Below the pieces are notes generated by a model. That model was not told the DNA's origin and did no database searches. It was given only the letters and a program-made list of their open reading frames with translations. The position numbers were made by a program, and so were the translations under genes. A stretch of DNA of 64,000 nt from an uncultured Planctomycetota bacterium (GTDB lineage Bacteria; Planctomycetota; Planctomycetia; Isosphaerales; Isosphaeraceae): positions 32,001 through 96,000 of the forward strand of contig CAWJTV010000034.1 in assembly GCA_963845755.1 (NCBI GenBank), given 5' to 3'. Below, piece after piece: positions 1-19,527 of the stretch. Every line of letters begins with the position of its first letter. Within the stretch, counting starts at the first letter, position 1.

Positions 1-3000
1 CACCTCGATCTACGACGATGCGGCGTCCACGCCCTTCGTGCCGGCCCTCGATGCATTCAGCGAGCCGAGCACGAAGACCCTCGCGCCCAGCCTGTGGGGC
101 AGCGTCGGGATCATCAGTGGCGGCGTCGTCGTCATCAACGACGCCACCTTCAGGTACGGCGGCGGCCAGGTCAACTCGCGGACCTTCACCATCCCTTCGC
201 AGTCGGTGCTGGCGTTCATCACGTTCGATTGGGACGGCTACTTCTTCGTTTCTGCCGACCCGACACTCGGCACGCACGCCTACATCACCAACAACAACTT
301 CATCGACAACTTCGACTCCGCGATGCAGATCGAGCCCGACGGCCTGCTGGCGGGCGATCCGCTCCGGCCGCTGCTCTCCGGCCATCCATTCCTCCGCGGC
401 AACGTGATGCAAGGCAACGGCATCGATGGACTCGGCGTCGTGGCCAATCGCGTCTATCAATACCTGGACGTCAATGGCGTCCCGAACTTTGATGACTACC
501 TCGGTCCCCGTGACGCCATCGCCGTAAGTGCCGCCTACGAAAACCTGGACGTCAACTCGGTCTGGGATCTCACCGACATCACTTACGTCGTCCGTGGAAC
601 GATCGTCCTCGGCGGCGCGGACAGCGCTTTCGGTGCCGGCGATGATGGCCTACCGACACCCGGGACCACCTTCACGGCGCCGCCTGCGCCGGTTGTGTCG
701 TTGACCATTCAGGCCGCGCTGCCCGGCACCCTCCTGGCCGACGGCGAGACCATCCCCAGCCCAGGGCAGTCGGTGATCGTGAAGATGTTGAATGACGAGC
801 CCGTCCAGGGCGATGGCCTGGCCATCAACGGCGTGGGCGGGCCCCCCTCGATCCAGCAGAACGGCGCCGGGTTCGTCGTCGGCGTGGATGACGGCCTCGA
901 TCCGCCGACCCCGCTCGAGGGCGCTTTCGACCCGGGAGCCTATTCCGAATTCCGCCTCCTCGGCATTCCAGGCAACCAGACCACCGGCCAGGAGCGCGTA
1001 CCGGTGATCATCACCTCGCTCCGCGACGACACGGTCGGGACGACCGTCCGCGGCGTGAAGATGTACGACATCCTGGAGAACGATCCGGTCTACCAGCAAG
1101 TCGTCAACACCAATACCGCCACCAACTCGCTGACCACGCCCGAGCCCGGCGACGCTGGTGTCATCTACATCGGCGGCAACTCGATGCCGGAATGGGACCC
1201 CACCAATCCCTTCGATGGCAGCCTCATCCAGGATGCCGACATCTCCTATATGACCCGGATCGAGGAGCAAGGCGCCGGCCTCATCTACACGGTCGAGGGC
1301 TCGAGCGTCACGGCCGGCGAGTGGCAGGATGAGAAACAGGGCTATGGCGAGGGTGGGATCATCGGGCCGGGCTTCGGGTTCAAATCCCAGCCGGAGAACC
1401 AGCTCAACTCCCCCATGATCTTCACCATCTCGAACTCGAACCTCGCCGACTTCTCCGACGCGGGTGTCTTCGTCCATCCGTTGAACGGCGGGCGGACTCA
1501 ACATGACGGCACCGCTCTACTCACGCCCCTTCGACCCCGAGGGTGCTTACCTGTACATGTATAACGACACGGTGTCGAACATGCCTCAGGGGGTGCACAT
1601 CAACTCCCGGAGCGATAACGACACGTCCGCGCCCAGCCCCCAGGAGGCCGTGATCGAGAACACGACGTTCTACAACGACACCTTCGGCGTGCAGACGATC
1701 GCTCCGCAGTTCAATGGCCAGAATAATCTGTCCGAAGTCACCACGTTGCTGATGAACGACATCTTCGACGGCTCGTCGCAAATCGCGGTGAATATCCAGG
1801 GACAGGCGGGCTTCAGCGAGCTCCAGTACAACCTGTTCTTCAACAACGGCCAGAACGACGTCATCACGACCACCGATGGGGATTTCGGCGGTGCCGCCGG
1901 CTCGTTCGAGGGCGATCCGCAGTTCGTCGGTCCGGTCGGCGCGACCAACGACGCGACCGCCGAGAATTTCGAGCTGGAGTCAACCTCGCCGGCGATCGAC
2001 GCGGGCCGCAGCGAAATCGGACCGATCCCGGTCGCCAACGCGATCTATCCGTCCGTTACCCTCTCGCTCGGTGGCGGCCTCATCTCCGAGCTCATCACCG
2101 ATCCCAACACGTTGCCGGGCGACGAGGAGCCGGGACACTTCAACCCAGACGGCGGATTCGTCGAGATCCTCGATCAGCGCCAGCTCGTCACCTTGCCGGG
2201 GAGCGGCTCTTTCAGCTTCCCCGACGAGTGGCAACCCGTCCTGACCAGCAACCCCAATGGGTTTACCACGTCGTACGCCGCGGCAGGGACTTACAACTAC
2301 GAGCAGATCACGGGCGTGCGCGACATCCTGGGATATATCCGCGTCCCCGACCCGAACGTCCCCGGCGTCGGCTTCGGCAGCAACCCGTTCATCGACATCG
2401 GTGCTTATCAGTACGTCAACCTGAACCCGCCCAAGGTGACCGCGGTCCAGGCGACCGTGTCCAGCTCCAGCTCCAGCACCGGCACGACCACGGTCCCGTT
2501 CTACACGGTCGGGGGCCAGGCGGGGAGCAACACGACCCCGTCGACCATCTCCGTGACCTTCAACGAACCGATCGATCCCACCACGCTGAACGGCAACACC
2601 ATCCAGCTCGAAGAGCTCGGGCTCGCCCCCGGTACGAAGCAGCAGTTCATCAACCTCGCCGGCAAGGTGTCCTACAATAGTGTTACCGACCAGGTGATCA
2701 TCAGTCTGGGTGCCAGCGGGCTGTCGTTGCCGACGGACGAGTATGAGCTCATCCTGTTCGGCAGCGGCTCGCCGGTGATCGCCAACACGCAGGGCATCGC
2801 CCTCGATGGTGAGGACCTCTCCAACGGCGACAATCCCAATAGCGGCGTCACTCAGGCGCTCCCCTCGGGTAACGGCTATCCGGGCGGCAACTTCTACGAT
2901 CCGTTCATCATCAACACGACACCGCCCTCGGTCACCACGGGCACGTTCCAGATGTCGTCCACCACCGATTCCAATATCGTGGGCGACGACATCACCAACG

Positions 3001-5948
3001 TGGGCCAGCCGACGTTCGTCGGCACGATCACCGAGCCGAACCCCACCCTGGTCCCGCTGGCCGGCCAGACGGCCATGGTCAACGTCGGCCTGGACATCAA
3101 CGGAGTGACGTACTTCTCGGCCAGTCAACTCCCCGCCAACCTCGCGCAGTATGCGGCGTACATCCGTCCGGACGCGGGGAGCGGCCTGACCGACGCCAGC
3201 GGCAACTTCTCGGTGACCATCGGCATCGATGCCGCCGGCACCGGCCTGGTGACCAACACGTCCGCCCTGCCCGACCTGTTCCCGATCTACAACGTCGGGT
3301 CCAGCGGCGACCTCACGCCGGTCTCACCGACGGCCGGCGGCACCAACGCCATCTACTACGTGGCGCAGGCGGTCGTGACCGACCAGAGCGGCAACACGTC
3401 CGATCCCGCCAATCCCAACGCCCAGTTGCCTTTCATCGTGGACCAGACGGCTCCCACGGCCTCGTTCGTCAGCCCGACCGCCAACCAGGTCTTCACGTCG
3501 CTGACCAACGGCGGCGTCCAGTTCACGATCATTACCAGCAAGAACATCGACCTCACCCACTTCACGGCGGCGTCGATCCAGGTGACCAGCGCCGGGCCAG
3601 ACGGCATCCTCGGGACGGCCGACGACGTCACGATCCCCATCAACCCCAGCTCGCTCAAGGGCACCTACCTCGACCAGGGGATCGGGGGCAAGGGCGCCGA
3701 GGAGTTCACGTTCTCGACCGAGGGCACGCTCACCAACGACCTCTATGAGGTCACGCTGCTGACCACGGGGACGGACAGTGTCCGAGACATCGCGGGCAAC
3801 ACGCTGTCCGGCACGGTCAGCCAGGAGTTCGCGGTCGCGATCCCGTCGCTGGCTCACAACCTGTTCGTCGGGTCGGCCGCCTTTGTCACCAACACGGCCG
3901 CCGCGGTGGGCACGAGAGAGAACCCGTACCCGACCATCGGCGCGGCGATGACCGCGGCCAACGCGGGCGACGTGGTGGCGGTCCTGCCCGGCCTCTACAC
4001 CGAAAATGTAGTGCTCAAGCAGTTCGTGCGACTCCTCTCCGTCGCCGCGTCGAGCACGGATAACAGCGTGTTCGCCACCAGCACCGGCGATGCGCTCTCG
4101 ACGGTCATCCGGGCCCCGGCCGTCGCCTCCGGGACCACGAACGTCACGATCTCGGCCACGAATCTGCAGAGCTTCACCGGCCTCGAGACGGAGGTCGCCG
4201 GCTTCACCATCGCCAGCCCGCTCGTCGGCAATGCGGCCCTCGGGCCGATCAATCCGACGGGGGTCGGCGTCTGGGCGAACGACTCGAACATCCTGATCGA
4301 CAAGGACTACATCGCCGACGCGGGTATCGGTGTCCTGGCAACCACCTACGAGGGCAGCTCGCTCTCGCCGCAGGTCGAGAACGACGTGATCGCCGGGAAT
4401 ATCTATGGCGTCGAGATCACCGATGGCGGATCGACCCTACCGTCGCCCACGCCGACGCCCACTCCGACGCCGACGCCCACTCCGACGCCGACGCCCACTC
4501 CGACGCCGACGCCCACTCCGACGCCGACGCCCACTCCGACGCCGACGCCCACGCCGACGCCCACTCCGACGCCGACCCCAACGCCACCAGTGGGGGGGTC
4601 GCGGCCCCTGCAGACCGGGTCGAGCACACCCAATCCGGTCCAGTTGATCAATAATGACTTCGTGTTCAACACGGTCGGGCTGTACGTCAACGCCCTGGCC
4701 AGCTCGCCCGACGAAGCCTACGTCGCCAGCAACATCTTCTGGCAGAACCACGACCAGTCCAATGCCAGGAACGGGTTCGCGATCTTCGCGACGTTCCCGA
4801 ACAAGCAGAACCTGCAAAACAACCTGTTCTACGCCAACGGATTAGGTGATGCTAACCAGACCAACGCGACCAACGAGCTGGGCAATGGGTTCAATTCGGC
4901 CAATCTGACTTCGACGCCGGATTCCGAGGGGAACTACGTCGGCAACCCGGCGTTTGTCTTCCCCGTCGATCCCCGGCCCGGCTCGGATGGACCAGCGGCC
5001 CTCTTCGTGGACGGCGATTTCCAGTTGACCTCCCAGTCGGCGGCGATCGACAACGCCTGGGAACCCACGGCGATCCCGACAGACCTCCTCGGCAACTCGC
5101 AGGTGAAGATCGACGACGACGGCTTCGGCCTGGCCAACTTCGGCCCTCGCGACGTCGGTGCCCTGGAGTTCGACGGCACCGGCGGCACGCCCGTCGGCGG
5201 CTCGTTCCGGGTCGTCACGTCCTCGGTGGTGCCCATCGGCGGGGCCGAGTATGCCGGCGGCTCCACGCTCGTGACCTCGACATCACCCACGGCCATCACG
5301 CTGACCTTCTCCGGGAACGTCAATCCCAACAGCATCAACGCCACCGACCTGGTACTCTCCGGAACGGCCGTCAACCCGGCGGCGCCCGTGCATGCCACGA
5401 GCCTCACCTGGATCGACGGCGACACGGTGCAGTTCAATCTATCCGGCGGGCTCAATCTGCCGGGGACGCTCAATGTGGCCGTCCAGCCCGGTTCGATCGA
5501 CAGCGTCAGCGGTCAGAGCAACCTGGGCTACTCGGACAAGGTCGTGATTCAGATCGGCACGCCCCCGGCGCACGTGAATCCGACGCCGATGCCGATCTCG
5601 CCGACGCCAACCCCAACCTCGCCGACGTCGCCTCCGGGCACGATCGTGGTCACGCCGACCCCCGGACCGGCGCCCTCGCCCGTGTCGGTCTCGAAGAAGA
5701 AGCATCACGCGGTCGTCAAGAAGGTCGCTCATCCCAAGCCGGTCAAGCATCACGTGCACGCCAAGCCGGTCAAGCACGTCGTGCACGCCAAGCCGGTCAA
5801 GCACGTCGTGCATGCCAAGCCGGTCCATCACACGGTCAAGCCGGCCGTCGTGCATCCGGCCGTGGTGAAGATCGCCAAGGCGGCCACGACGCATCATCAG
5901 GAGACCAGGGCGATCGAGGTTCCCCACAACCACAAGCACAAGGCTTGA
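1..5948 (+). CDS. Giant secreted/surface protein, 5'-partial: beta-helix repeats, choice-of-anchor-Q-like motifs, Ig-like domains, PT linker, basic His/Lys tail. One frameshift near 1490-1503
   Basis: ORFs 38..1564 and 1503..5948 have the same acidic G/T/N-rich composition and overlap. Motifs: SPAIDAG...[14 protein letters not shown]...[52 protein letters not shown]. Confidence 0.75.
4446..4587 (+). repeat. Coding tandem repeat (18-nt unit ACGCCGACGCCCACTCCG) encoding a (Pro-Thr)n linker
   Basis: Directly visible in the DNA and in the translation. Confidence 0.95.
5733..5845 (+). repeat. Coding 27-nt repeats encoding (K-P-V-K-H-V/H-V-H-A)n in the basic tail
   Basis: gccaagccggtcaagcacgtcgtgca repeated; translation [30 protein letters not shown]. 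Confidence 0.9.
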
Positions 5949-9467: not shown

Positions 9468-11195
9468 TCATGGACGCCCCGCGCGATCGCGGATCTGTCG
9501 GAGCATGCCTTTCAGGGAAAGCGTGTTCCAGACGTCCGTCGATTCCAGCCATCCGCGACGGGCTACGGAGATCCCGTAGTCCAGATCGTCGAAGCCGGAG
9601 ACGGCATGAGCATCGGGATTGATCACGAGTTTCACTCCTTTCTCTCGCGCCCTGCGGCAGTGGATCGCGTCGAGATCCAGCCGGTGCGGGCTGGCGTTGA
9701 TCTCGATCATCGTGCCGGCCTTGGCGGCGGCCTCGATCACGGCATCGAGGTCCACGGCGTAGGCGTCGCGCGCCAGCAAGAGCCGGCCGGTCGGGTGGCC
9801 GAGCATGGTGACTCGCGGGTGGGACGCCGCGCGGACCAGGCGCCGGGTCATCTCGTCTCGCGGGAGCTGAAAACTGGAATGGATGCTAGCTACCACGTAA
9901 TCGAACCCCTCCAGCAGATCGTCCGGATAATCGAGCGAGCCATCCGCCAGGATGTCGCACTCGGTTCCCTTGAACACGTGGAACGTGGCGCCGAAGGACG
10001 CGTTGAGCGCGTCGATCTCCGCCCATTGCGACCGGACGCGTTCGATGCTCAGGCCGCCGGCATAGCCGGCCGATCGCGAATGATCGGCGATCCCCAGATA
10101 ATGCAGGCCGCGCAGGCGCGCGGCTTCGGCCATTTCCGCGAGCGTGGCCGATCCATCGCTCCAGTCGGTATGGCAATGAAAGGTACCCGCCAGGTCGTCG
10201 CGCTCGATGAGTTTCGGGAGCCTTCCCGCTTCCGCGGCAACGATCTCGCCGGCATCCTCGCGGAGCTCGGGCGGGATCTCCGCAAGTCCCAGCGCCGCGA
10301 AGAGATCGGCCTCTGTCTGGCAGGCGATCGACCGGTTCTCCCCGGTCAGGGCATATTCGTTCAACGACAGTCCCTGCACAGCGCCCGCCGCCGCATCGCG
10401 ATATTGTGGGCCTTCGAGCCCGTGAAATAGTGGAGAGCGAACGGGAACTGGCTGTCTTCGACGGCGCGAAGGTCGCACTGGACGCCGTCCGCCAGGCGGC
10501 ACGCTGGCCTTGGTCGGGCCGTGCGCCAGCACGGTGGCCACGTGAGGGAGCTTGACGAAGGCGTCGATCACCGCGGAGGCGTGCTTCGAGCTGCAGAGCA
10601 CGTCGAGATCGCCGATCGTCTCGGCCCGGCGGCGCAGGCTGCCGCAGTATTCCGCCCGGATGACCTGCGGATGGGCGCGAACCGCCGCCATGATCGGTGT
10701 GACCAATCGCAGGGCGTGGCTCTGGAGGATCCGATCCCCCGACTTTTCCACGAAGGCGATCCCTTCGAGAATCTTCGCCTCGGTCTTCTCGCCGAACCCC
10801 TTGAGTTTGGCGATCTCACCCGATTCACCCGCCTTGCGCAGATCCGCAAGACTCTCGATCGCCAGGGTCTCGTGGAGCGCCTTGATTTTCTTGGGGCCCA
10901 GCCCGGGGATGCGCAGCAGGGCCACCAGGCCCGGCGGCGTGCTCCGCCGCAGGTCCTCATAGGCGGGCAACTGGCCCGTGGTCGCCAGTTGGACGATCTT
11001 TGCGTACATCGTGTCGCCGATGCCGGGGACTTCCTTGAGCCGGTTCTCCGCGATCACCTCCGACAGCTTATCGGGGAGGTTCAGGAGCGCTTGAGCGGCG
11101 GTGTGGTAGGCGCGACACCGGAACGGGTTCTCACCCCGAATCTCCAGCATCGTCCCCATCTCGTCGAGTACCTGGGCAATTCGCGCGGTTTCCAT
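9468..11195 (-). CDS. polX: DNA polymerase X / PHP 3'-5' exonuclease, compensating frameshifts near 10500 and 10380
   Basis: ENPFRCRAY, HhH motifs, [17 protein letters not shown] motifs [22 protein letters not shown]. Confidence 0.92.
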
Positions 11196-11206: not shown

Positions 11207-12541
11207 TCAATGGCTGCGCGGTTTGATTCCCAACAGCGTCTGCGGACTGTCATACAAGATGGACCGCGCGAATTCCAGTGCCAGCGCGTCGTCGAGTTGA
11301 CCGAGATCAACACGTTCCGCCAGCACCTGGGCCAGGATCTTCCGAACGATGACCGCCTTCGCGTACGACCACTCGGCACAATAGGCGTCGGAGAAGAAAC
11401 CGACTTGCTTGTTGGCCGGGAGCATTTCCAGTCGCTCGCGGATCACCTGACCGATCGTGTCCGGGAAGAAGTTGTGCCACCAGTATCCGGCCAGGCTGAG
11501 GTTCGGCAATTCGCGCGCCAACGTGCAAAGGGCCTGGTTGGCCGACCGACTGGCCAGGAAACACTGGAACCGCAGCCTGGGGTGACGTCCGATCAGGGTG
11601 GCGACCTGGCCGATCGTGCGCTGAGACAACCGGCTGGCCGTCTCGAAGGGGAGCGGCTCGGCTCCGAAGCTGAACTGGAAGACGATTTCCTCCGCGTGTT
11701 TCTCCAGGGCGGTCAGGAACACCTCGTTGACATACGAGGCGTAACAATCTCGCTCGGTGGGCCCGGCTCGATCCCTTCGCCCGATCGCCGCGTCCATCTC
11801 CGCCTCGGTGACATCCCGGTAATCGATGTCGGTTGACAGATGCGTCGCGGTCGAGACGATCTGGCCGTAGGGAATGTGTGAGACATAGTGGGCGATCGCG
11901 TCGTGGACATCTGCCACGTTTCGGATCCGTCGCTCGGTCGACGGCCGGTCACCTCCTCCGATCGGCGCGGGGCTCTCGGGCGACCTGCCCCAGCAACGCT
12001 CCAGCTCGTAGAGCGCCGTGTCATATTCGCCCCACTGGCATCTCGTGAAAAAGCCCCATTCCAGCGCGTACTGGAGCCGGTCGTCATCCTCACCGGTACC
12101 TCGACGCGCGATTTCGGTCCCCGTGCGCTCGATCCTGGCACGGTCGAGGACCGCGCGCGGCCAGCTCCGGTCGTCGGCCCGCTCGCGAATCATCCCGTCC
12201 AGCCTTTTCCAGTTGGTTTCGTCGATCGGAGCCGTCCAGCCGTAGAGGTCGCGGAGGATGATCCGTACGCCCCATGAGGAGCTGGTATTCTGGATAGACC
12301 GCAGATAAGGCAGGGCCTCTCCGATCCGCGCGTGGGCCTCGGCCTCGCTCGGCCAGCCAGGAAACTGCGTCAGCCGGCCTCCGGACGGGCAGCCGGCGGA
12401 GTACAGGTCCGTGACGACCATGTGATAAAGCAGAATGTCATGCAACCCCCGCGCCGCCAGTTTGCCGCCAACGAGGTGCGTGTGCACGTCCAGGATCGGG
12501 ACATCACCCAGGGCCTGCTCCAGATCTCCTGCCATCATCAT
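11207..12541 (-). CDS. Amidohydrolase-superfamily protein resembling uronate isomerase
   Basis: ILDVHTHL (HxH), ILLYHM, GYWWHNF...RLEML...GFFSDA are similar to UxaC-type motifs. Confidence 0.6.
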   Translation of the reverse strand: MMMAGDLEQALGDVPILDVHTHLVGGKLAARGLHDILLYHMVVTDLYSAGCPSGGRLTQFPGWPSEAEAHARIGEALPYLRSIQNTSSSWGVRIILRDLYGWTAPIDETNWKRLDGMIRERADDRSWPRAVLDRARIERTGTEIARRGTGEDDDRLQYALEWGFFTRCQWGEYDTALYELERCWGRSPESPAPIGGGDRPSTERRIRNVADVHDAIAHYVSHIPYGQIVSTATHLSTDIDYRDVTEAEMDAAIGRRDRAGPTERDCYASYVNEVFLTALEKHAEEIVFQFSFGAEPLPFETASRLSQRTIGQVATLIGRHPRLRFQCFLASRSANQALCTLARELPNLSLAGYWWHNFFPDTIGQVIRERLEMLPANKQVGFFSDAYCAEWSYAKAVIVRKILAQVLAERVDLGQLDDALALEFARSILYDSPQTLLGIKPRSH

Positions 12542-12576
12542 TCTCGTCCCGCCGCAAAGTTTCAGACAGAGTGTTT

Positions 12577-12628
12577 TTCACCGCAGAGACCGCAGAGACC
12601 GCAGAGACGAAGACAGAGAGAAAAGAGA
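12577..12628 (+). repeat. Left inverted repeat: (CCGCAGAGA)3 plus purine tract
   Basis: ttca-ccgcagaga-ccgcagaga-ccgcagaga-cgaagacagagagaaaagaga. Confidence 0.9.
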
Positions 12629-12672
12629 GAACAGAAAAAATCGCTAAATCTGAATTATTTCATAAATTATGA

Positions 12673-13065
12673 TTAACTGTCTTGATAACCATTGACGACG
12701 CGTCTCACGCCCTCGGTAGCCAGGATCCTGACGTTGAAATTCATGAGCAGGCCAACGGTCTTCCCTGAGAGTTTCAAATAGGACAGTAATTGAGCCAGGT
12801 GGATCGGGATGATCTTGTTGACGGATTTGAGTTCAACGATGACCGTGTTTTCGACCAGCAGGTCGAGCCGATAGCCGCAATCGAGGTAAATTCCCTTGTA
12901 AGCAACAGGTAGCTCTTTTTGTTTTTCGACGAAATACCCGCGCTGACGCAACTCGTAGACCAGGCATGCCTCATAAGTCGATTCCAGGAGTCCCGGGCCG
13001 AGGGCTCTGTGGACGTCGATCGCAGCACCGATGATTGCCTCGGTCAACTGGTTGATCTCGATCAT
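12673..13065 (-). CDS. GxxExxY protein (PD-(D/E)XK nuclease superfamily)
   Basis: [11 protein letters not shown] signature; [19 protein letters not shown]-richer than its neighbours. Confidence 0.92.
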
Positions 13066-13166
13066 TGCGGTAAACAACTCCTCGGACTTTCCGAGGTGAT
13101 GCTCCGAGTCTCGGGAATCTCTGATAGCGACTCTCTACTTGAGTTCGTATCCTTCTTCTTGATGAG

Positions 13167-13218
13167 TCTCTTTTCTCCCCGTCTTTTCTCTGCGATCTCT
13201 GCGGTCTCTGCGGTGGAA
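13167..13218 (-). repeat. Right inverted repeat matching 12577..12628
   Basis: Reverse complement reads ttcca-ccgcagaga-ccgcagaga-tcgcagaga-aaagacggggagaaaagaga. Confidence 0.9.
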
Positions 13219-13249
13219 ATTCTTCGGGATGTTCACTGTGGTTCGCGGA

Positions 13250-13891
13250 TCAAAGCGACGACAACCACTGGCGCATCGCGGCGGGGTCTTCGCCGAACAG
13301 GAGCGAGCCCGGTACGATCCAGTCGGCGCCGGCTTCGTTGATCAAGGGGACGGTGTTGCGCCGGATGCCGCCGTCGAGCTGGATATCGACCTGGGCCCCC
13401 TGCTCTGCCATCGCCTTGCGGGCTTCGCGAATCTTCGACGGGATCGAGGCGTCCATCGAAGTTCCTTTGGTGCCCATCGGTGTCCCCACGATCGTGACTT
13501 GATCGATCGAGCGCCAATAGGGTTCGAGGAGCGTGACGGGCTCGGTCACCAGCAGCGAGATGCCCACGAGCTGGCCGAGCGACTTGGCCTGACCGATGGC
13601 CGCGGCGGGATCGCTGAGCGAGTCGAAGCAGAAGATCACGCCATTGGCGCCGGCCTCGGCAAACGGCTCGATCCAGGCTGTGGGATCGGTCGTCATCAGG
13701 TGCACTTCGAACGGCCTCGTCGTGTGCTTTCTCAGGGCTTTGACCAGGTCGGGGAAGAAGAGCAGGCTCGGGACATAATGGCCGTCGGCGACGTCGAGGT
13801 GGAATCGCTCGGTGAACGGCTCGACGCGGTGGATCTCGGCGCCGAGGTTCGACAGATCGGCCGACCAGAGCGAGGCGGAGCATTTCAGCAT
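13250..13891 (-). CDS. rpe: Ribulose-phosphate 3-epimerase family protein
   Basis: SASLWSAD, HLDVADGHYVP, EVHLM, QLDGGI, VPGSLLF. Confidence 0.85.
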   Translation of the reverse strand: MLKCSASLWSADLSNLGAEIHRVEPFTERFHLDVADGHYVPSLLFFPDLVKALRKHTTRPFEVHLMTTDPTAWIEPFAEAGANGVIFCFDSLSDPAAAIGQAKSLGQLVGISLLVTEPVTLLEPYWRSIDQVTIVGTPMGTKGTSMDASIPSKIREARKAMAEQGAQVDIQLDGGIRRNTVPLINEAGADWIVPGSLLFGEDPAAMRQWLSSL

Positions 13892-14709
13892 GGCGTGACC
13901 TTCTCGCGAAAGTGGTGGATCAAGAACGCATCGAGCGCAGACTTCACATCGGCGGCATGGTTTTCGACACTCACCGATTTCGGCGTGATCTCGCGAAGCT
14001 CGGCGCCGGGGATGAGCTGGGCGATGGTCTCCGCGAAGGCCCAGGGATGGATCGGGTCCTGGCGATTGCCCAGGATGAGCGTGGGAGCGTGGATCTTGTG
14101 ATAGTCGTCGCGGGAAGCTACACGGCGTATCGCCGGGCAGTCGCTCCAGCCTCGCGACATAGTCCTCGGCGCGCGGCTGTTCGAACTGACCGACGAGCGA
14201 CCGGGCGCAGTCGGGCGATTCCAGATCTATCGCCTGGTATTCGGGTGTCTTTCGGAAGTGCTCGAGCCCTTTCTTGCGCCCAGGTCGCGGATCAGTCCGG
14301 CGATCGTCGAATAAATACGGACATTCTCCGGAAGCGGCCCATCAATCCACGCTGGCCGCGAGAGGACGAGCCCGAGCACCCGCTCGGGAAACCGCAGCGC
14401 GGTGTTCACGGCCACCGCCGACCCGAGCGAGATGCCGCCGATCACGGCGCGATCGATCCCCAGGTGATCGAGGAACGCGATGAGATCCTCGGCCAGAATG
14501 GCGATACTCAGCCGGTTCGGATCACCTAGCGGATGCGTCTGGCCATGCCCTCGGCTGTCGAAGCCCAGGAGTCGAATCCCCGGCGCCGGGTTGTAGACCG
14601 AAAACGGCTGGCTCACGTCACCGCCGAGTCCGTGCTGAAATACCAGCGGAAGCCCCTGCCCTCGCTCGCAGTAAGGGAAGTCCAGGCCGTCATGATTAAA
14701 TAGTAACAT
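13885..14709 (-). CDS. Alpha/beta hydrolase, frameshifted
   Basis: FQHGLGG, DSRGHG, GISLG nucleophile elbow, PTLILGNRQDPIHP. Confidence 0.8.
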
Positions 14710-14732
14710 AATCTGTTATTTCGTCGATAGGC

Positions 14733-15686
14733 TTACATGATGTCGCGTAGAACGAGAACCATCCGGTCAACTTCCCGCTCTTCCAGCCCGTGAATGATCA
14801 TGCCGCCGGCATATGCCATTCGACTCATGGAATCGAAATAAGTGCGGTAGAAGGCCTCCAGGAGAAAATGTTCCAACAGATCACGGTCATCGACTTCTCC
14901 GTGCTCTCCCGCCTGGCCCGGCGAAAGACGGTGGCGATTGATGAAGAGCTTGAGTAACGTGCCGTGATGCGCCTTGTCCGATTCGATGGCTTTCCGCACC
15001 TGTTCCTCATCAAGTTCCTCTCCGCGGGCAGGGTTCTTGGCGTGTGCGAGGACGATGTCAGGACCAAGCCAATCGAAGGCCTCCTCGAGAATCTCCGCCA
15101 TCCGGTGCAGCTCACCGGGACGGATCAGGTTCGCCGGGTCGATCACCACCTTGAGCCAGGGAGAGTCGACCTCGTCGAGCAGCATGCGGGCCTTGGTCAC
15201 CGAGTTGACCACATTGTTGATCTCGGGCTCGAAGGCCAGTGTGACCTCGTTCCGATCGGCGATGCTCACAGCTTCCTGTATCGAGTGCCGCAAGAGGTCC
15301 CAGGTGCTACGGCAAACGTTGTCGGGATGCCATCGCCACATATCTTCCGGGTCGCGCGTGCCCGTGCAGATCGTGATGATCCGCGTATCCAGCCAACGGC
15401 AAGCCGCAGCGAGGGCCCCAAGACGATGCAGGTTCTCCCGGAGGCGAGTCTCATCGGGATCGCAGAGGTTGAACGTGCCCGAGATCGCGGCCATCGTCAA
15501 GCCGCGCTGGCGGAACTCGCGGGCGATCCAGATGCAACGGTCCTCGTCGAGTCGTTCGGGGAGTGTCGGCAATCCCGCGCACGACGTATTGAACTGCACG
15601 TGAGTCAAGCCACGGTCCGCGATGGCGTCGAGGGTTTCCTCGAGGGTCGCCCGCGGGAAAGTCTTGGCGAAGATCCCCAGATGCAT
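14733..15686 (-). CDS. Sugar phosphate isomerase/epimerase (TIM barrel)
   Basis: MHLGIFAKTF, SGTFN, CTGTRD, FEPEINNVV, DPANL, HAK. Confidence 0.85.
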   Translation of the reverse strand: MHLGIFAKTFPRATLEETLDAIADRGLTHVQFNTSCAGLPTLPERLDEDRCIWIAREFRQRGLTMAAISGTFNLCDPDETRLRENLHRLGALAAACRWLDTRIITICTGTRDPEDMWRWHPDNVCRSTWDLLRHSIQEAVSIADRNEVTLAFEPEINNVVNSVTKARMLLDEVDSPWLKVVIDPANLIRPGELHRMAEILEEAFDWLGPDIVLAHAKNPARGEELDEEQVRKAIESDKAHHGTLLKLFINRHRLSPGQAGEHGEVDDRDLLEHFLLEAFYRTYFDSMSRMAYAGGMIIHGLEEREVDRMVLVLRDIM

Positions 15687-16765
15687 CAGACACCTCCGCT
15701 GACGTCCGCCAGCCGGACAAGCTCCCCGGATTCGACCGAGCGCGGCAACGGCGACCATCGCCTGCATCGCGGCCAGTCCATCGTCGAGGCTCGCCCCGGT
15801 CTGGGGTGCCCCATCCAGGATCGTCGCCGCGAACCCCTCGATTTGCCGCTTGTACGTGTGCGCGCATCCTCGCCGAGCACCCGATGGAACTGCCGGTCCT
15901 TCGTCGAGAAGCATTCGACGTCGCTGGACTTGTGGAACCAGGGCAGATAGACCCGGCCGCTGACGCTGCCGTGCTCGCCGAAGACCTGGAAGCCCTCCTG
16001 GAAGTCGCCGCGGACCGGGATCTGGAGATCCAGGTGTCCCAGCGAACCGTCTTCATAGTCAACCGCGATGAACCAGCAATAGGCGCCGAATCGTTCGAGC
16101 AGCCGGGCGCGGACGCCGACAATCGGTCCGCCCAGGAATCGCGCCGTATCGATCAGATGGCTGCTATGAGTCAGGATGAAATCGCGCCTTCGATCCGCCT
16201 TGGGATCACCCTCGGGCCGGAGCGCCTTCTGGCTTGCCAGCGGGATCGGCTGGAGGTTGTCGGTCATCGCGTAACGATAGATCGAGTCGTAATACCAGGC
16301 CTTGAGCGCGATCCGCTCGCCCATCTCCTCGTGGATGAACTGGCGAGCGAAGGCGATGCCGGGGTCGAAGCGCCGGTTGTTGCCGACCTGGACGACCAGG
16401 CCGGTCTGCGCCGCGCGGTCGCGGAGCTCGCGGCAGGACTCGACCGTTGTACCGAGCGGTTTCTCGACGAGGACGTGCTTGCGCACCTCGAGTGCCTTCA
16501 GGGTCGCGGCCACGTGGAACTGGTCGGCGATGGCGATGATGACGGCGTCAACCTGCGGCTCGGCCAGCATGGCGTCGTAGTCGCGATAGGCCATCTTCGG
16601 CCCATGAACGGCGTCCATCCGATCGCGCAGGTCGTCGGCGAGGTCGCAGATCGCGAACAGCTCGGCGTTGCGCGCCTTGCGGCAGGCGTCGAGGTGGGCG
16701 AACTGCGCGATCGGGCCGCAGCCCAGCACGCCGATCCGTACGCAGCGCGGGTCCTTGACGATCAT
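15686..16765 (-). CDS. Gfo/Idh/MocA family NAD(P)-dependent oxidoreductase, local frameshifts near 15860 and 15745
   Basis: GVLGCGPIAQFAH, HVLVEKP, NRRFDP. Confidence 0.9.
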   Translation of the reverse strand: MIVKDPRCVRIGVLGCGPIAQFAHLDACRKARNAELFAICDLADDLRDRMDAVHGPKMAYRDYDAMLAEPQVDAVIIAIADQFHVAATLKALEVRKHVLVEKPLGTTVESCRELRDRAAQTGLVVQVGNNRRFDPGIAFARQFIHEEMGERIALKAWYYDSIYRYAMTDNLQPIPLASQKALRPEGDPKADRRRDFILTHSSHLIDTARFLGGPIVGVRARLLERFGAYCWFIAVDYEDGSLGHLDLQIPVRGDFQEGFQVFGEHGSVSGRVYLPWFHKSSDVECFSTKDRQFHRVLGEDARTRTSGKSRGSRRRSWMGHPRPGRASTMDWPRCRRWSPLPRSVESGELVRLADVSGGV

Positions 16766-18186
16766 CAATGGTCCCCCGCATAACGCTGCCGGAGGGCCTC
16801 GCGAAGTGCCGTCAGGTTCTTCCGCTCGGCGAGGGCCGCCAGGGCCGCCAGGTGTTCCTTCATCGGGATGTCCTTGAGCTCACCGGATCGATGGACCTCG
16901 ATGGCCTGCATGAGCGACTCCAGGCCGATACGCGGGTCGGTCTTACCATCTCGGCCCTTGATCGAGTTGATCGCCGAGCCGGCCAGGAACAGGATGTTCT
17001 GGGCATTTCCCTTGGATTCGACGTCCTGGAGGTTGAGGATCAGGTTGCCCTGATCGAGCGCCGGCGCGGGTGATCATGGTGGGGTTGATGCCCGCGATCG
17101 GTCGTGTGAGGGCGTCTTCCGAGGCGATCCATTCCGCGCCATAGGGACGGATATAAGGCGCACCGGGCCGTACCGGGGCGGTCTGACGAAAATCGATCCC
17201 GTCGAGCCGAGCGAGCATGTCGATGACCTCGCGCAGATCGCACGGGTCTTGATCCCGATGCCGGCATTGTGCCCGTAGATGGCCGGGGGATTGGCCAGAT
17301 TGCGCGTCGCCTCCCGGACCATGCGCACGGTCCCGCCCGCATAGGTCTCGCTGAACATCACCCCCGAGGCGCCCGCGTCGACGACCGCAAGGACAATGTC
17401 CACGATCTGATGGGGCGCGGCGGTCACATGGGGCGAGTAGACCAATCCCAGCCCGCCGCGTCGATCCTTGACCCGATCGATCGCCGCGACGGCGCGTCGG
17501 GTCCGATCGGCGACCGGCGAGTAATCGAGGTCGGGATAGAGGTCTTCATCCTCCTTGATGAACATGAGGAGCGGGCTCCCGGCCACTTCCTCCACCAGCC
17601 GTCCGACGTCGTCGGGAGTGATCCCAGCCGTCGGTTTGAGGATCGTCCCGAATGCCGGCTGATCAAGGGCAAAGCCCGTCTTCTTGCGGATCCCGACCGG
17701 TCCGTACGCCGGGCCGGGGAACGTCGCGAGCACATCATCCGGGATCTGGAGCGCGATCAGGCGTGCGTCCTGATTCTCGTGCATGTCGAAGATGACGGCA
17801 CCGGCCAGGGTGTGGAGCAGGTCGCACGAGGTCAGGTGGCCGTCGGGGTGCCTCATCATCTTGAGCGGGAATGCGACGTGGAGCAGGCCGATCCGGCCGG
17901 TCGCGTCGAAGGCGTCCACGCCGGCCGCCCGCGCCGAGCATTGCTCGAGCAGCGAACCCCGGGGCGGGTCCTTGATCCCACTCGTCGCGTGATAGCTGAT
18001 TTCTCCGACAGCTTTGGCCAGCGTCTGGGAGCGGAAGGCGAAGTAATACGTCGCCACCACGTGATCGGACACCTTGGGTGGAGGATTCGCTCCTAGGCGA
18101 TCCCCGATCACCTCTCGCAAGAGCTCCTCGCGCACGTCGAAATCATCCCATAGCCGTGCCAGGGTCTCGGTCGTCAACGAACTCAT
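16765..18186 (-). CDS. RuBisCO-like protein (form IV/RLP), frameshifts near 17235 and 17060
   Basis: VVATYY, FPGPAYGPVGIR, GTILKP, FIKEDED, IYGHNAG, LARLDGID; the rejoined C-terminus ends in a TGA overlapping the next ATG. Confidence 0.85.
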
Positions 18187-18747: not shown

Positions 18748-19527
18748 ATGCAACGGATGCGCAGCGTCATCGTCAGGGCAGGTCTTGTGTTGCCCCTCTT
18801 CGTGCTCGGCAGCGTCTGGCTCCCCGCGCGTGCCGACCTGATCCGCACCAAGCCGGGCCGGTCCTTCCCGGATATTGCCGGCGATATTGCGGGCAGCCAG
18901 ACCTACAGGTACGACCCGGCCACACAGACCGGTACCTTCTCCCTGGTCAACGCGCCCCACCTCATCTCCCTGGGACCTTCGGACAAGGACCTCGTCCCGA
19001 TGCAGCCGGAGAAGGATGGGACGCTCACCCAGTCGCTCAAGATGAAGCTGGACCGCGAAGGACGACTGATCCAGAGCCCGCTCAACCGGTTCGAGATCCG
19101 CGGCACGGTGGTGATCGGCGATCGGACGTACCAGGGTCTGCTGCTCGAAGGGAAGCCGACGGCCTTCGGCGCCGGTGGCCCGAACGCCTCCACGGCGCGG
19201 AGTTCGGACGTCTTCGACCTGAATATGAACATCACCGGGGGCGAGCTGGCCGGCGCATTCGGAACGGAGGCCTATCTACGCATCACGCCCCAGGCCAATA
19301 GCACGTTCCAGGGCGAGTTCACGACCGACTTCTCGGGAGAGCGGCCCCTCACGAACCTCCGAGCCCTCAACCAGCTTCCGAGGTCGGTCCCTGGGCCGAT
19401 GACCCTGATCGCCATGCTGACCTTCGTGGCCGGGTTGCTGGCCTACCGGATGCGCCGATACCTGATCCGGATCGAGCGCCGTCGGTATCATCCCACGAAT
19501 CGGAAGCCCAGTCTCTGGGTCTCCTAG
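18748..19527 (+). CDS. Secreted protein with PEP-CTERM-like C-terminus (VPGP variant)
   Basis: Signal peptide ending ARA-D; SVPGPMTLIAMLTFVAGLLAYRMRR. Confidence 0.65.
   Translation: MQRMRSVIVRAGLVLPLFVLGSVWLPARADLIRTKPGRSFPDIAGDIAGSQTYRYDPATQTGTFSLVNAPHLISLGPSDKDLVPMQPEKDGTLTQSLKMKLDREGRLIQSPLNRFEIRGTVVIGDRTYQGLLLEGKPTAFGAGGPNASTARSSDVFDLNMNITGGELAGAFGTEAYLRITPQANSTFQGEFTTDFSGERPLTNLRALNQLPRSVPGPMTLIAMLTFVAGLLAYRMRRYLIRIERRRYHPTNRKPSLWVS

Follow-up and report, generated by a model that had tools for sequence, protein, structure and literature searches.

A locus in an uncultured planctomycete of the family Isosphaeraceae raises the question of what a RuBisCO-like protein (RLP) contributes to a cluster of genes for sugar metabolism. 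The locus lies in a 64,000-nucleotide stretch of contig CAWJTV010000034.1 (positions 32,001 to 96,000; assembly GCA_963845755.1), hereafter the window, whose minus strand encodes, from 18186 to 11207, the RLP, a Gfo/Idh/MocA oxidoreductase (Gfo), a TIM-barrel protein (TIM), an alpha/beta hydrolase, an Rpe-like epimerase, a GxxExxY insert and a UxaC-like protein (Uxa). The six same-strand genes and the insert had been proposed, with their coordinates, in an earlier note, and all of them are present. RLPs are the main source of insight into the origin of RuBisCO chemistry, and only a handful of their reactions are known. The RLP described here belongs to a clade that has no assigned function, and we tentatively favour a role as a non-carboxylating Mg-enediolate isomerase or epimerase of a ketose-1-phosphate, which likely turns a dead-end sugar phosphate into one usable by central metabolism. 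The residue pattern, the clade and the gene context are directly established, as is the fold on a model of an intact relative.

The RLP gene (16765..18186, minus strand) encodes a form IV protein of 474 amino acids, as judged by intact relatives, and contains frameshifts at about 17233 and 17060; modelling and residue numbering were based on P0002, an intact relative that is 94% identical to the window RLP. With a PF00016 score of 36-39 bits (cut-off 30.1), the protein belongs to the RuBisCO superfamily. The AlphaFold2 model of P0002 (pLDDT 86, pTM 0.89) matched RuBisCO and RLP structures in a Foldseek search (probability 1.0, TM-scores of about 0.7-0.8, identity of at most 24%), and the window RLP is predicted to have the RuBisCO fold. 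Matches obtained in an Atlas search with the RLP were confined to RuBisCO/RLP clusters.

Every RLP motif listed in the earlier note occurs in the translation (TRAGA only if read across the 17060 frameshift), and the assignment of RuBisCO residues made there by eye is upheld by an alignment to the form I RbcL of C. necator, with the columns numbered as in the spinach enzyme. The residues kept are K175 (K184 in P0002), K201, D203, E204, H294 (H306), G380 and G403, with KDDE changed to KEDE. Replaced, in P0002 numbering, are E60>H66, N123>A130, K177>T186, R295>N307, H327>Q335 and S379>A375 and, in addition to those noticed earlier, T65>I71, K334>Y345 and G404>S405. Membership of forms I-III therefore fails, as all eight of E60, T65, N123, K177, R295, H327, K334 and S379 are replaced and the best score is 79 bits against a cut-off of 497. 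K184, K211, D213, E214 and H306 are invariant in all 233 clade sequences (90 after 80% filtering). Also invariant in these sequences are H125, H253, N307, R334, Q335, R374, D379, Q380 and N382, which together with S405 form the clade's own invariant set. The loop-6 lysine, R295 and the acidic residue at position 60, all retained by the OiaX and four-carbon-acid references, are missing from the clade, and K177 and N123 of form I are lost as well. Loops 7 and 8 retain G376 and G404-S405; glycines at these loops are the typical phosphate grip of TIM barrels. Judging from these residues, the clade appears to retain what is required to enolise an Mg-bound 2-ketose, probably a 1-phosphate, and to lack the residues that stabilise a carboxylate. 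The invariance of K184, K211, D213, E214 and H306, the losses just listed and the glycines of loops 7 and 8 are among the observations that speak for enolisation of a ketose-1-phosphate.

None of the NCBIfam cut-offs for RuBisCO or RLPs was reached (form III, 79/497 bits; OiaX, NF042437, 70/700 bits; MtnW, NF007095 and TIGR03332, 51/409 and 29/514 bits). The closest relatives of the window RLP are Isosphaeraceae and other planctomycete records; the best 120 homologues show 75-100% identity, and an exhaustive search yielded full-length clade members down to 37%, with other RLPs appearing from about 30%. In a quick maximum likelihood tree (SH-aLRT support only; 49 rows, i.e. 25 clade members, 6 annotated references and 18 other RLPs; flagged for long-branch joining of the outgroup P0244), the clade has an SH-aLRT value of 100 and a stem of 2.05 changes per column, and is separate from the form I, OiaX, four-carbon-acid and mtnK/mtnA-linked references. 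The distinct RLP subfamily suggested by the earlier note is borne out by this clade, by the missed NCBIfam cut-offs and by the label 'RLP_UNK' in the supplement of PMC13454268; the clustering with a characterised clade that the note had named as a refutation was not seen in the tree, from which the R. rubrum and hamamelose sequences were left out.

The table in question (PMC13454268, supplementary file 6), published in 2026 and covering the superfamily, contains sixteen consecutive rows (1034-1049), all designated 'RLP_UNK' with the status 'neither', which we recognised through their motifs as the clade of the window RLP. These rows come from Planctomycetota, Verrucomicrobiota, Chloroflexota, Armatimonadota, Latescibacterota, Acidobacteriota and Handelsmanbacteria, with one Patescibacteria-labelled and one unclassified record. 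The clade sequences are thus already part of a published dataset, in whose table they are unnamed and unstudied. Full-text literature searches, by which subscription journals are poorly covered, revealed no paper characterising the clade or the operon. RLPs acting in sugar catabolism are known from the apiose, tetronate and hamamelose routes (available text of PMC6302742 and PMC8914248); what is new here is that a clade without a name has an active site and partners of its own. Other uncharacterised RLP clades that are related to this one have the HIT/HVT, AGG(L) and AG(S/T) motifs in common and likewise lack K334; they are found in L040 (G139:C212), P0207, P0214 and P0234, and in rows 1050-1062 of the same supplementary table.

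The clade RLP is encoded in 50 of 121 Isosphaeraceae genomes and absent from 71 (five extra hits at 26-29% identity represent other RLPs and were dropped). A phylum-wide sample of 300 other Planctomycetota genomes contained a single RLP, of another type, so that outside Isosphaeraceae the clade has a patchy distribution. No relative was detected when viral contigs were scanned with the most distant clade member, and plasmid RLPs are at most about 35% identical to the clade. In one contig (L036) of an Actinomycetota-labelled bin, the genes are ordered as in planctomycetes (polX, DUF2203, cmk) and the RLP is 82% identical; this contig is probably misbinned. An intact clade RLP is present in a cultured organism, Tautonia sociabilis.

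To compare gene contexts we used 118 loci, i.e. 38 from genomes and the best 80 of at least 192 that a scan of metagenomes confirmed; of the 118, 52 are long (at least 6 kb downstream); as related loci are not independent, the counts given are descriptive and are not statistics. Gfo was found in 35 long loci, TIM in 35, the hydrolase in 34, Rpe in 35, Uxa in 25 and a PfkB-family kinase in 16, and none of them in nine. The complete order RLP-Gfo-TIM-hydrolase-Rpe-PfkB-Uxa is seen e.g. in L029, L089, L097 and L105. The neighbourhood check proposed by the earlier note thus revealed neighbours that co-occur with RLP homologues across phyla (Gfo in 35 of the 52), where lack of co-occurrence was to count against its reading. 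As the note had also observed, methionine-salvage genes are missing: none of the 118 loci has a methionine-salvage (mtnK or mtnA) or DUF1537 context, and a role in methionine salvage was rejected on this basis and because mtnB and ARD are below cut-offs in the genome.

This context bears on whether the RLP could decarboxylate the beta-keto acid phosphate of a branched sugar acid, as OiaX does in apionate catabolism. The dehydrogenase, the hydrolase (a possible lactonase) and the UxaC-like protein suggest sugar-acid chemistry, and RLP decarboxylases are known (PMC6302742, in its available text). However, the OiaX model is missed by a wide score difference (70/700 bits), K334, R295 and D/E60 of the OiaX-type references are lost, and no DUF1537 kinase is encoded in the 118 loci or in the genome, so that we consider decarboxylation distinctly improbable. 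Of the enolate chemistry envisaged in the earlier note, isomerisation is favoured, and decarboxylation is disfavoured by the loss of K334, R295 and the acidic residue at 60.

The kinase that accompanies the RLP in other loci is informative. The earlier note had reported no kinase, which holds for the window and for the genome (88% complete, no orthologue found) but not for the family, in which 22 of 118 loci have PfkB, as do 12 of 21 long loci from metagenomes; what the note deduced from the missing kinase falls away, PfkB being a standard family member elsewhere. The best solved match of the family PfkB is the sulfofructose kinase YihV (7AG6, E 6e-37), followed by ketohexokinases. YihV and ketohexokinases phosphorylate C1 of ketoses, and the proximity of PfkB to them argues for a ketose-1-phosphate as the RLP substrate. 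The sulfoquinovose pathway, raised by the YihV match, was set aside, since of the Lys-Arg-Asn triad that binds the sulfonate in YihV only the lysine appears to be kept in the alignment (K27 retained, N109>F, R138>Y). In a second arrangement the RLP is found with an MtlD-like dehydrogenase (8 of 118 loci), a cupin of the phosphomannose isomerase (PMI) type or a type I PMI, PfkB and Uxa, as well as with class II or DUF2090 aldolases; the dehydrogenase, the cupin/PMI and the aldolases also point to ketose-phosphate chemistry.

Taking these observations into account, the following route may be envisaged. (i) Gfo, TIM and the hydrolase would convert an intracellular sugar or glycoside to a free sugar, perhaps via a 3-keto intermediate, and the UxaC-like protein may supply an aldose-ketose step. 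(ii) The YihV/ketohexokinase-like PfkB, a member of the family operon not found in this genome, would phosphorylate C1 of the ketose. (iii) The RLP would grip the phosphate at loops 7 and 8 and take the C3 proton via its carbamate-Mg site, and reprotonation would give the C3 epimer or, as with the R. rubrum 1,3-isomerase, a 3- or 4-keto isomer. (iv) The Rpe-like epimerase, elsewhere the MtlD-like dehydrogenase with phosphomannose isomerase, would lead to a pentose-5-phosphate or fructose-6-phosphate. Carbonyl transposition by the R. rubrum RLP on 5-methylthio-D-ribulose-1-phosphate, as given in the available text of PMC6302742, is the precedent. In a bolder and rather unlikely extension, which would be a reaction new to the RuBisCO superfamily, the clade would walk the carbonyl of an unsubstituted ketose-1-phosphate to yield an omega-phosphate ketose without a mutase in at least seven phyla. 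The Gfo-TIM-hydrolase trio would then form a route that has not been described and in which a pentulose may arise by deformylation of a 3-keto-hexose.

No partner enzyme can be assigned to a known Enzyme Commission (EC) number. Pfam and NCBIfam calls for the locus comprise PF00016, PF01408, PF01261, PF00561, PF00834 and PF13366/TIGR04256. Gfo (15686..16765, minus strand; PF01408, an NAD(P) oxidoreductase) has inositol 2-dehydrogenases as its best NCBIfam and PDB matches and is far under the IolG cut-off (95/355 bits). TIM (14733..15686, minus strand; PF01261) is nearest in profile to D-tagatose 3-epimerases; the first Glu, the Asp and the His are kept, and the second catalytic Glu aligns with an invariant His258. 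As the two metal-flanking glutamates are the catalytic residues of D-tagatose 3-epimerases, membership of that group fails, and the label 'isomerase' given to TIM in the earlier note is not sustained. TIM is the fastest-changing gene of the cluster: in this lineage, right after the HAK motif (window 14733-15030), a hypervariable insertion of 30-60 residues supplants a conserved glycine-rich loop, and it cannot be aligned even between close relatives (also L045, L046, L047, L050 and L061). The alpha/beta hydrolase (13885..14709, minus strand; PF00561) retains a Ser-Asp-His triad pattern (GxSxG serine, DPIH aspartate, late histidine). The Rpe-family epimerase (13250..13891, minus strand; PF00834) keeps the HxD, H and D metal motifs, has an altered substrate loop (GTxMGxKG) and is under the cut-offs of Rpe (TIGR01163, 140/213 bits) and AlsE (NF007266, 115/271 bits); a second Rpe homologue, 35% identical, lies on contig C31 and is possibly the housekeeping copy. 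The UxaC-like protein (11207..12541, minus strand), of amidohydrolase fold, carries HxH, WWH and SDAY motifs, the last in place of the SDAR of UxaC, whose arginine, following the metal-binding Asp, is a functional residue of uronate isomerase. Its nearest solved structure, 4I6V, also has SDAY, and the glucuronate isomerase model NF002794 matches weakly (33.5/387 bits); membership of the uronate isomerases fails, and that earlier label has to be given up.

Part of the cluster also occurs without the RLP. The window Gfo has 119 matches in plasmid records at E < 1e-60, the best of which (56-58% identity) belong to an RLP-free rhizobial module. In all seven rhizobial regions inspected (L062, L063, L064 and L155-L158), Gfo-TIM-hydrolase is accompanied by an ROK gene and ABC transporter genes, and in five by Rpe; no RLP or UxaC-like gene is annotated in these seven. 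An ROK gene of this type is found in none of the 118 RLP loci, a contrast that counts in favour of the ketose-1-phosphate reading. In two of the seven regions, those of R. johnstonii 3841 and Shinella sumterensis, the module is preceded by a DhnA aldolase and a PfkB; the 3841 kinase shows 39% identity to the family PfkB. ThuA follows the module in 3841 and lies near the RLP in 6 of 118 loci; it hints at a 3-keto-glycoside route, although the six loci may be one lineage. Rhizobia would likely bypass steps (ii) and (iii) with the ROK kinase, or with PfkB and the DhnA aldolase. The simplest view is that the sugar of the front module would have three exits: ROK with the Rpe-like enzyme, PfkB with an aldolase, or PfkB with the RLP and the Rpe-like enzyme (or MtlD/PMI). 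By their positions, we infer that pRL120027 and pRL120033 are module genes of 3841, while SMc03810 and SMc03815 presumably belong to the S. meliloti module by synteny. According to the text available from PMC5118466, pRL120027 encodes an aldolase and pRL120033 a putative allulose-6-phosphate epimerase, and both genes are neutral for growth; PMC12542648 gives SMc03810 and SMc03815 generic labels only; nothing but automatic labels was found in these sources for the rhizobial cluster.

The cluster is modular within Isosphaeraceae too. Among the 121 genomes, Gfo occurs in 38 (24 RLP-positive, 14 RLP-negative), Rpe-like genes in 31 (25 RLP-positive), PfkB in 11 (9 RLP-positive) and Uxa orthologues (E < 1e-100) in 21, all RLP-positive, when 22 genomes with only 27-32% Uxa paralogues are left out. 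The same chromosomal slot carries Gfo-TIM without the RLP in six of the seven RLP-negative genomes read, and in several RLP-negative genomes Gfo and an altered TIM are the sole remnant of the cluster. Partners without the RLP (in rhizobia and in 14 of 38 Gfo-positive Isosphaeraceae) and RLPs without partners (21 of 50) argue against the single obligate pathway implied by the earlier note.

Several points weigh against the isomerase/epimerase reading. The principal one is that a PfkB orthologue occurs in only 9 of the 50 RLP-positive Isosphaeraceae and not in this genome, so that in most of them another kinase or source must supply the substrate; other PfkB genes of the host (11 matches) might act as substitutes. 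No transporter or regulator names a substrate. Since 21 of the 50 RLP-positive genomes have none of Gfo, Uxa, Rpe and PfkB, and the RLP-only pairs compared are under purifying selection, a mechanism derived from the operon is weakened. A 1,3-shift gives a 5-phosphate for pentuloses only, and the ROK, MtlD and PMI partners suggest hexoses. The tree was built without the characterised R. rubrum and hamamelose RLPs. Finally, the invariant R334 and R374 lie one residue ahead of the positions of H327 and S379; should they point into the active site, they would imply a second substrate anion and favour cleavage of the substrate.

Such a cleavage, in which the RLP would break a C-C bond of a doubly anionic ketose (e.g. 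5-keto-hexonate-6-phosphate or a hexulose bisphosphate) by retro-aldol or O2-dependent chemistry, is in our view unlikely, and so is its most explicit form, an inositol-like route in which the RLP stands in for the aldolase and Gfo corresponds to IolG, TIM to IolE, the hydrolase to IolD, the UxaC-like protein to IolB and PfkB to IolC. Beside the two arginines, the inositol 2-dehydrogenase matches of Gfo speak for it, as do the DhnA aldolase beside a similar PfkB in rhizobia without the RLP, the DUF2090 gene (an aldolase domain fused to IolC) adjoining RLP-PfkB in L104, the occurrence of Uxa orthologues solely with the RLP (21 of 21) and the precedent of the hamamelose RLP (available text of PMC8914248). 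Yet the IolG score is low, L113, L104 and L075 encode an aldolase as well as the RLP, which makes the latter no simple aldolase replacement, and ROK kinases suit neutral sugars better than acids. A shifted beta6/beta7 register equating R334 with H327 and R374 with S379 is disfavoured by sister-clade motifs (F-x-Q, AGGL) and by hhalign, in which the register is ungapped at beta6 and loop 7. The ungapped register would set both arginines at positions that face outward in RuBisCO.

The partner-free genomes could alternatively mean that the RLP works on its own, in repair or housekeeping, on a stray ketose phosphate (e.g. an MtnA product or a kinase side product) and merely heads an independent sugar module. 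Several of the 21 RLP-positive genomes without Gfo, Uxa, Rpe and PfkB are rated 95-99% complete, RLP pairs from partner-free loci are under purifying selection (ratios of non-synonymous to synonymous substitution rates, dN/dS, of about 0.06-0.14), the locus often lies amid housekeeping genes (S1, sigma, polX, cmk), and the host genome has an mtnA homologue (46% identity). We nevertheless hold this quite unlikely, because metagenome loci whose RLP is 60-70% identical have the operon in the same order amid unrelated genes, PfkB and Uxa accompany the RLP even where the locus has been rearranged (L081, L090, L093, L103, L107, L113 and L121), and absence of the RLP from 71 of 121 family genomes shows that it is not essential.

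The frameshifts raise a further alternative, namely that the cluster is decaying in this lineage, with the kinase lost, TIM drifting and the frameshifts real. Two frameshifts each affect the RLP, Gfo (near 15865 and at 15745-15751) and the hydrolase (14275 and 14119). When they were compared with short-read contigs of near-identical organisms, as the earlier note had recommended by calling for their repair, the reading frame was restored at five of the six operon sites, 17060 being uncovered, and the genes were treated as intact on this ground. S1, a sigma factor, cmk and polX of the window are also shifted; taken with the restored frames, this makes assembly errors the most likely cause in a host genome of 14.3 Mb in 49 contigs. 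Although the lack of a PfkB orthologue, the fast-changing TIM with its unalignable insertion and the varying gene subsets kept among genomes would suit decay, it is highly improbable given the mended frames, the 89-98% identity of RLP, Gfo, Rpe and Uxa to intact relatives, the dN/dS of 0.12 in an operon-bearing RLP pair and the similar frameshifts in essential genes.

The first five genes overlap or nearly abut, as had been noted: RLP/Gfo and Gfo/TIM are joined by TGATG overlaps, TIM and the hydrolase are about 24 nt apart, and the hydrolase and Rpe overlap by 7 nt. The GxxExxY (PD-(D/E)XK_3; PF13366/TIGR04256) insert (12575..13219, minus strand; gene 12673-13068) has about 50% guanine and cytosine and is bounded by 33-nt inverted repeats (12575-12607 and 13187-13219). 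Inverted repeat arrays of the ACCGCAGAG type flank the gene, similarly in L003 (6583-7592, up to 114 nt) and L037 (14943-15777). The insert, found in 3 of 38 genome loci, occupies the same Rpe-Uxa junction in three genomes; in L007 it comes directly after the RLP. It resembles a small mobile or repeat-associated element and is outside the pathway.

Several neighbouring features were also observed. A PolX-PHP gene (9471-11195, minus strand; two probable assembly frameshifts) begins 11 nt past the UxaC-like stop, so that transcription of the operon may continue into genes for DNA repair and cmk. Divergent from the operon is a conserved 256-residue protein (18757-19524, plus strand) that matches no Pfam family and begins like a signal peptide; its gene is syntenic with that of the sigma factor. 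A very large, repetitive protein of surface type is encoded at 1503-5948 (plus strand); it contains a long (PT)n tract, and its tail is rich in Lys and His. In one Isosphaeraceae group (L009, L013, L014, L023, L029 and L059) a recurring block lies directly upstream of the RLP and, by eye, appears to contain a YjhG/YagF-like dehydratase, a nucleoside deaminase, a kynurenine formamidase-like cyclase and a kynureninase-like gene.

The clade, which has a long branch and is strongly conserved, occurs widely among bacteria of soil and freshwater, and its operon probably hides an undescribed reaction of the RuBisCO family. If the carbonyl walk is true, at least seven phyla use it to connect with central metabolism without a mutase. 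The proposal can be tested directly with the RLP of the cultured T. sociabilis and with the four partner genes in genetically tractable rhizobia. Many clade members are labelled 'ribulose-bisphosphate carboxylase large chain' in Joint Genome Institute (JGI) records, and such labels can inflate metagenome counts of CO2-fixing potential.

Compared with known systems, the rhizobial Gfo-TIM-hydrolase-(Rpe)-ROK cluster (e.g. that of R. johnstonii 3841 pRL12 or S. meliloti) shares four genes and their order with the window operon at 34-56% identity and is tractable for finding the substrate; it differs in having ABC transporters, ROK and sometimes PfkB and an aldolase, with no RLP or UxaC-like gene in the seven regions. 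MtnW (2,3-diketo-5-methylthiopentyl-1-phosphate enolase) is also a non-carboxylating RLP and, like the clade RLP, has lost the P2 phosphate site. MtnW membership fails, however, on the missed cut-offs and on the missing mtnB/mtnD context. OiaX/OiaT (3-oxo-isoapionate-4-phosphate decarboxylase, transcarboxylase) and the DUF1537-linked four-carbon-acid RLPs are likewise encoded in a sugar cluster with a dehydrogenase and a kinase; the clade is only about 25% identical to OiaX/OiaT, has lost K334, R295 and the acidic residue at 60, is accompanied by PfkB and not by a DUF1537 kinase, and is separate in the tree, so that membership fails here too. The hamamelose-pathway RLP oxygenase of Ochrobactrum anthropi, O2-dependent according to the text available from PMC8914248 (citing Kim 2018), may resemble the clade as the terminal enzyme of a rare-sugar pathway. 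The R. rubrum type is marked by a context of mtnA/mtnK or a cupin methylsulfurylase; mtnK and mtnA are lacking from the 118 clade loci, and the mtnK/mtnA-linked RLPs of O. anthropi and R. rosettiformans have a basic residue at 334 and are separate from the clade in the tree; membership of the 1,3-isomerase type fails as judged on these proxies and not on the R. rubrum sequence itself. What the clade has in common with the R. rubrum RLP (5-methylthio-D-ribulose-1-phosphate 1,3-isomerase; PMC6302742, available text) is the carbamate-Mg RuBisCO fold, and the carbonyl transposition catalysed by the latter is the very chemistry proposed here.

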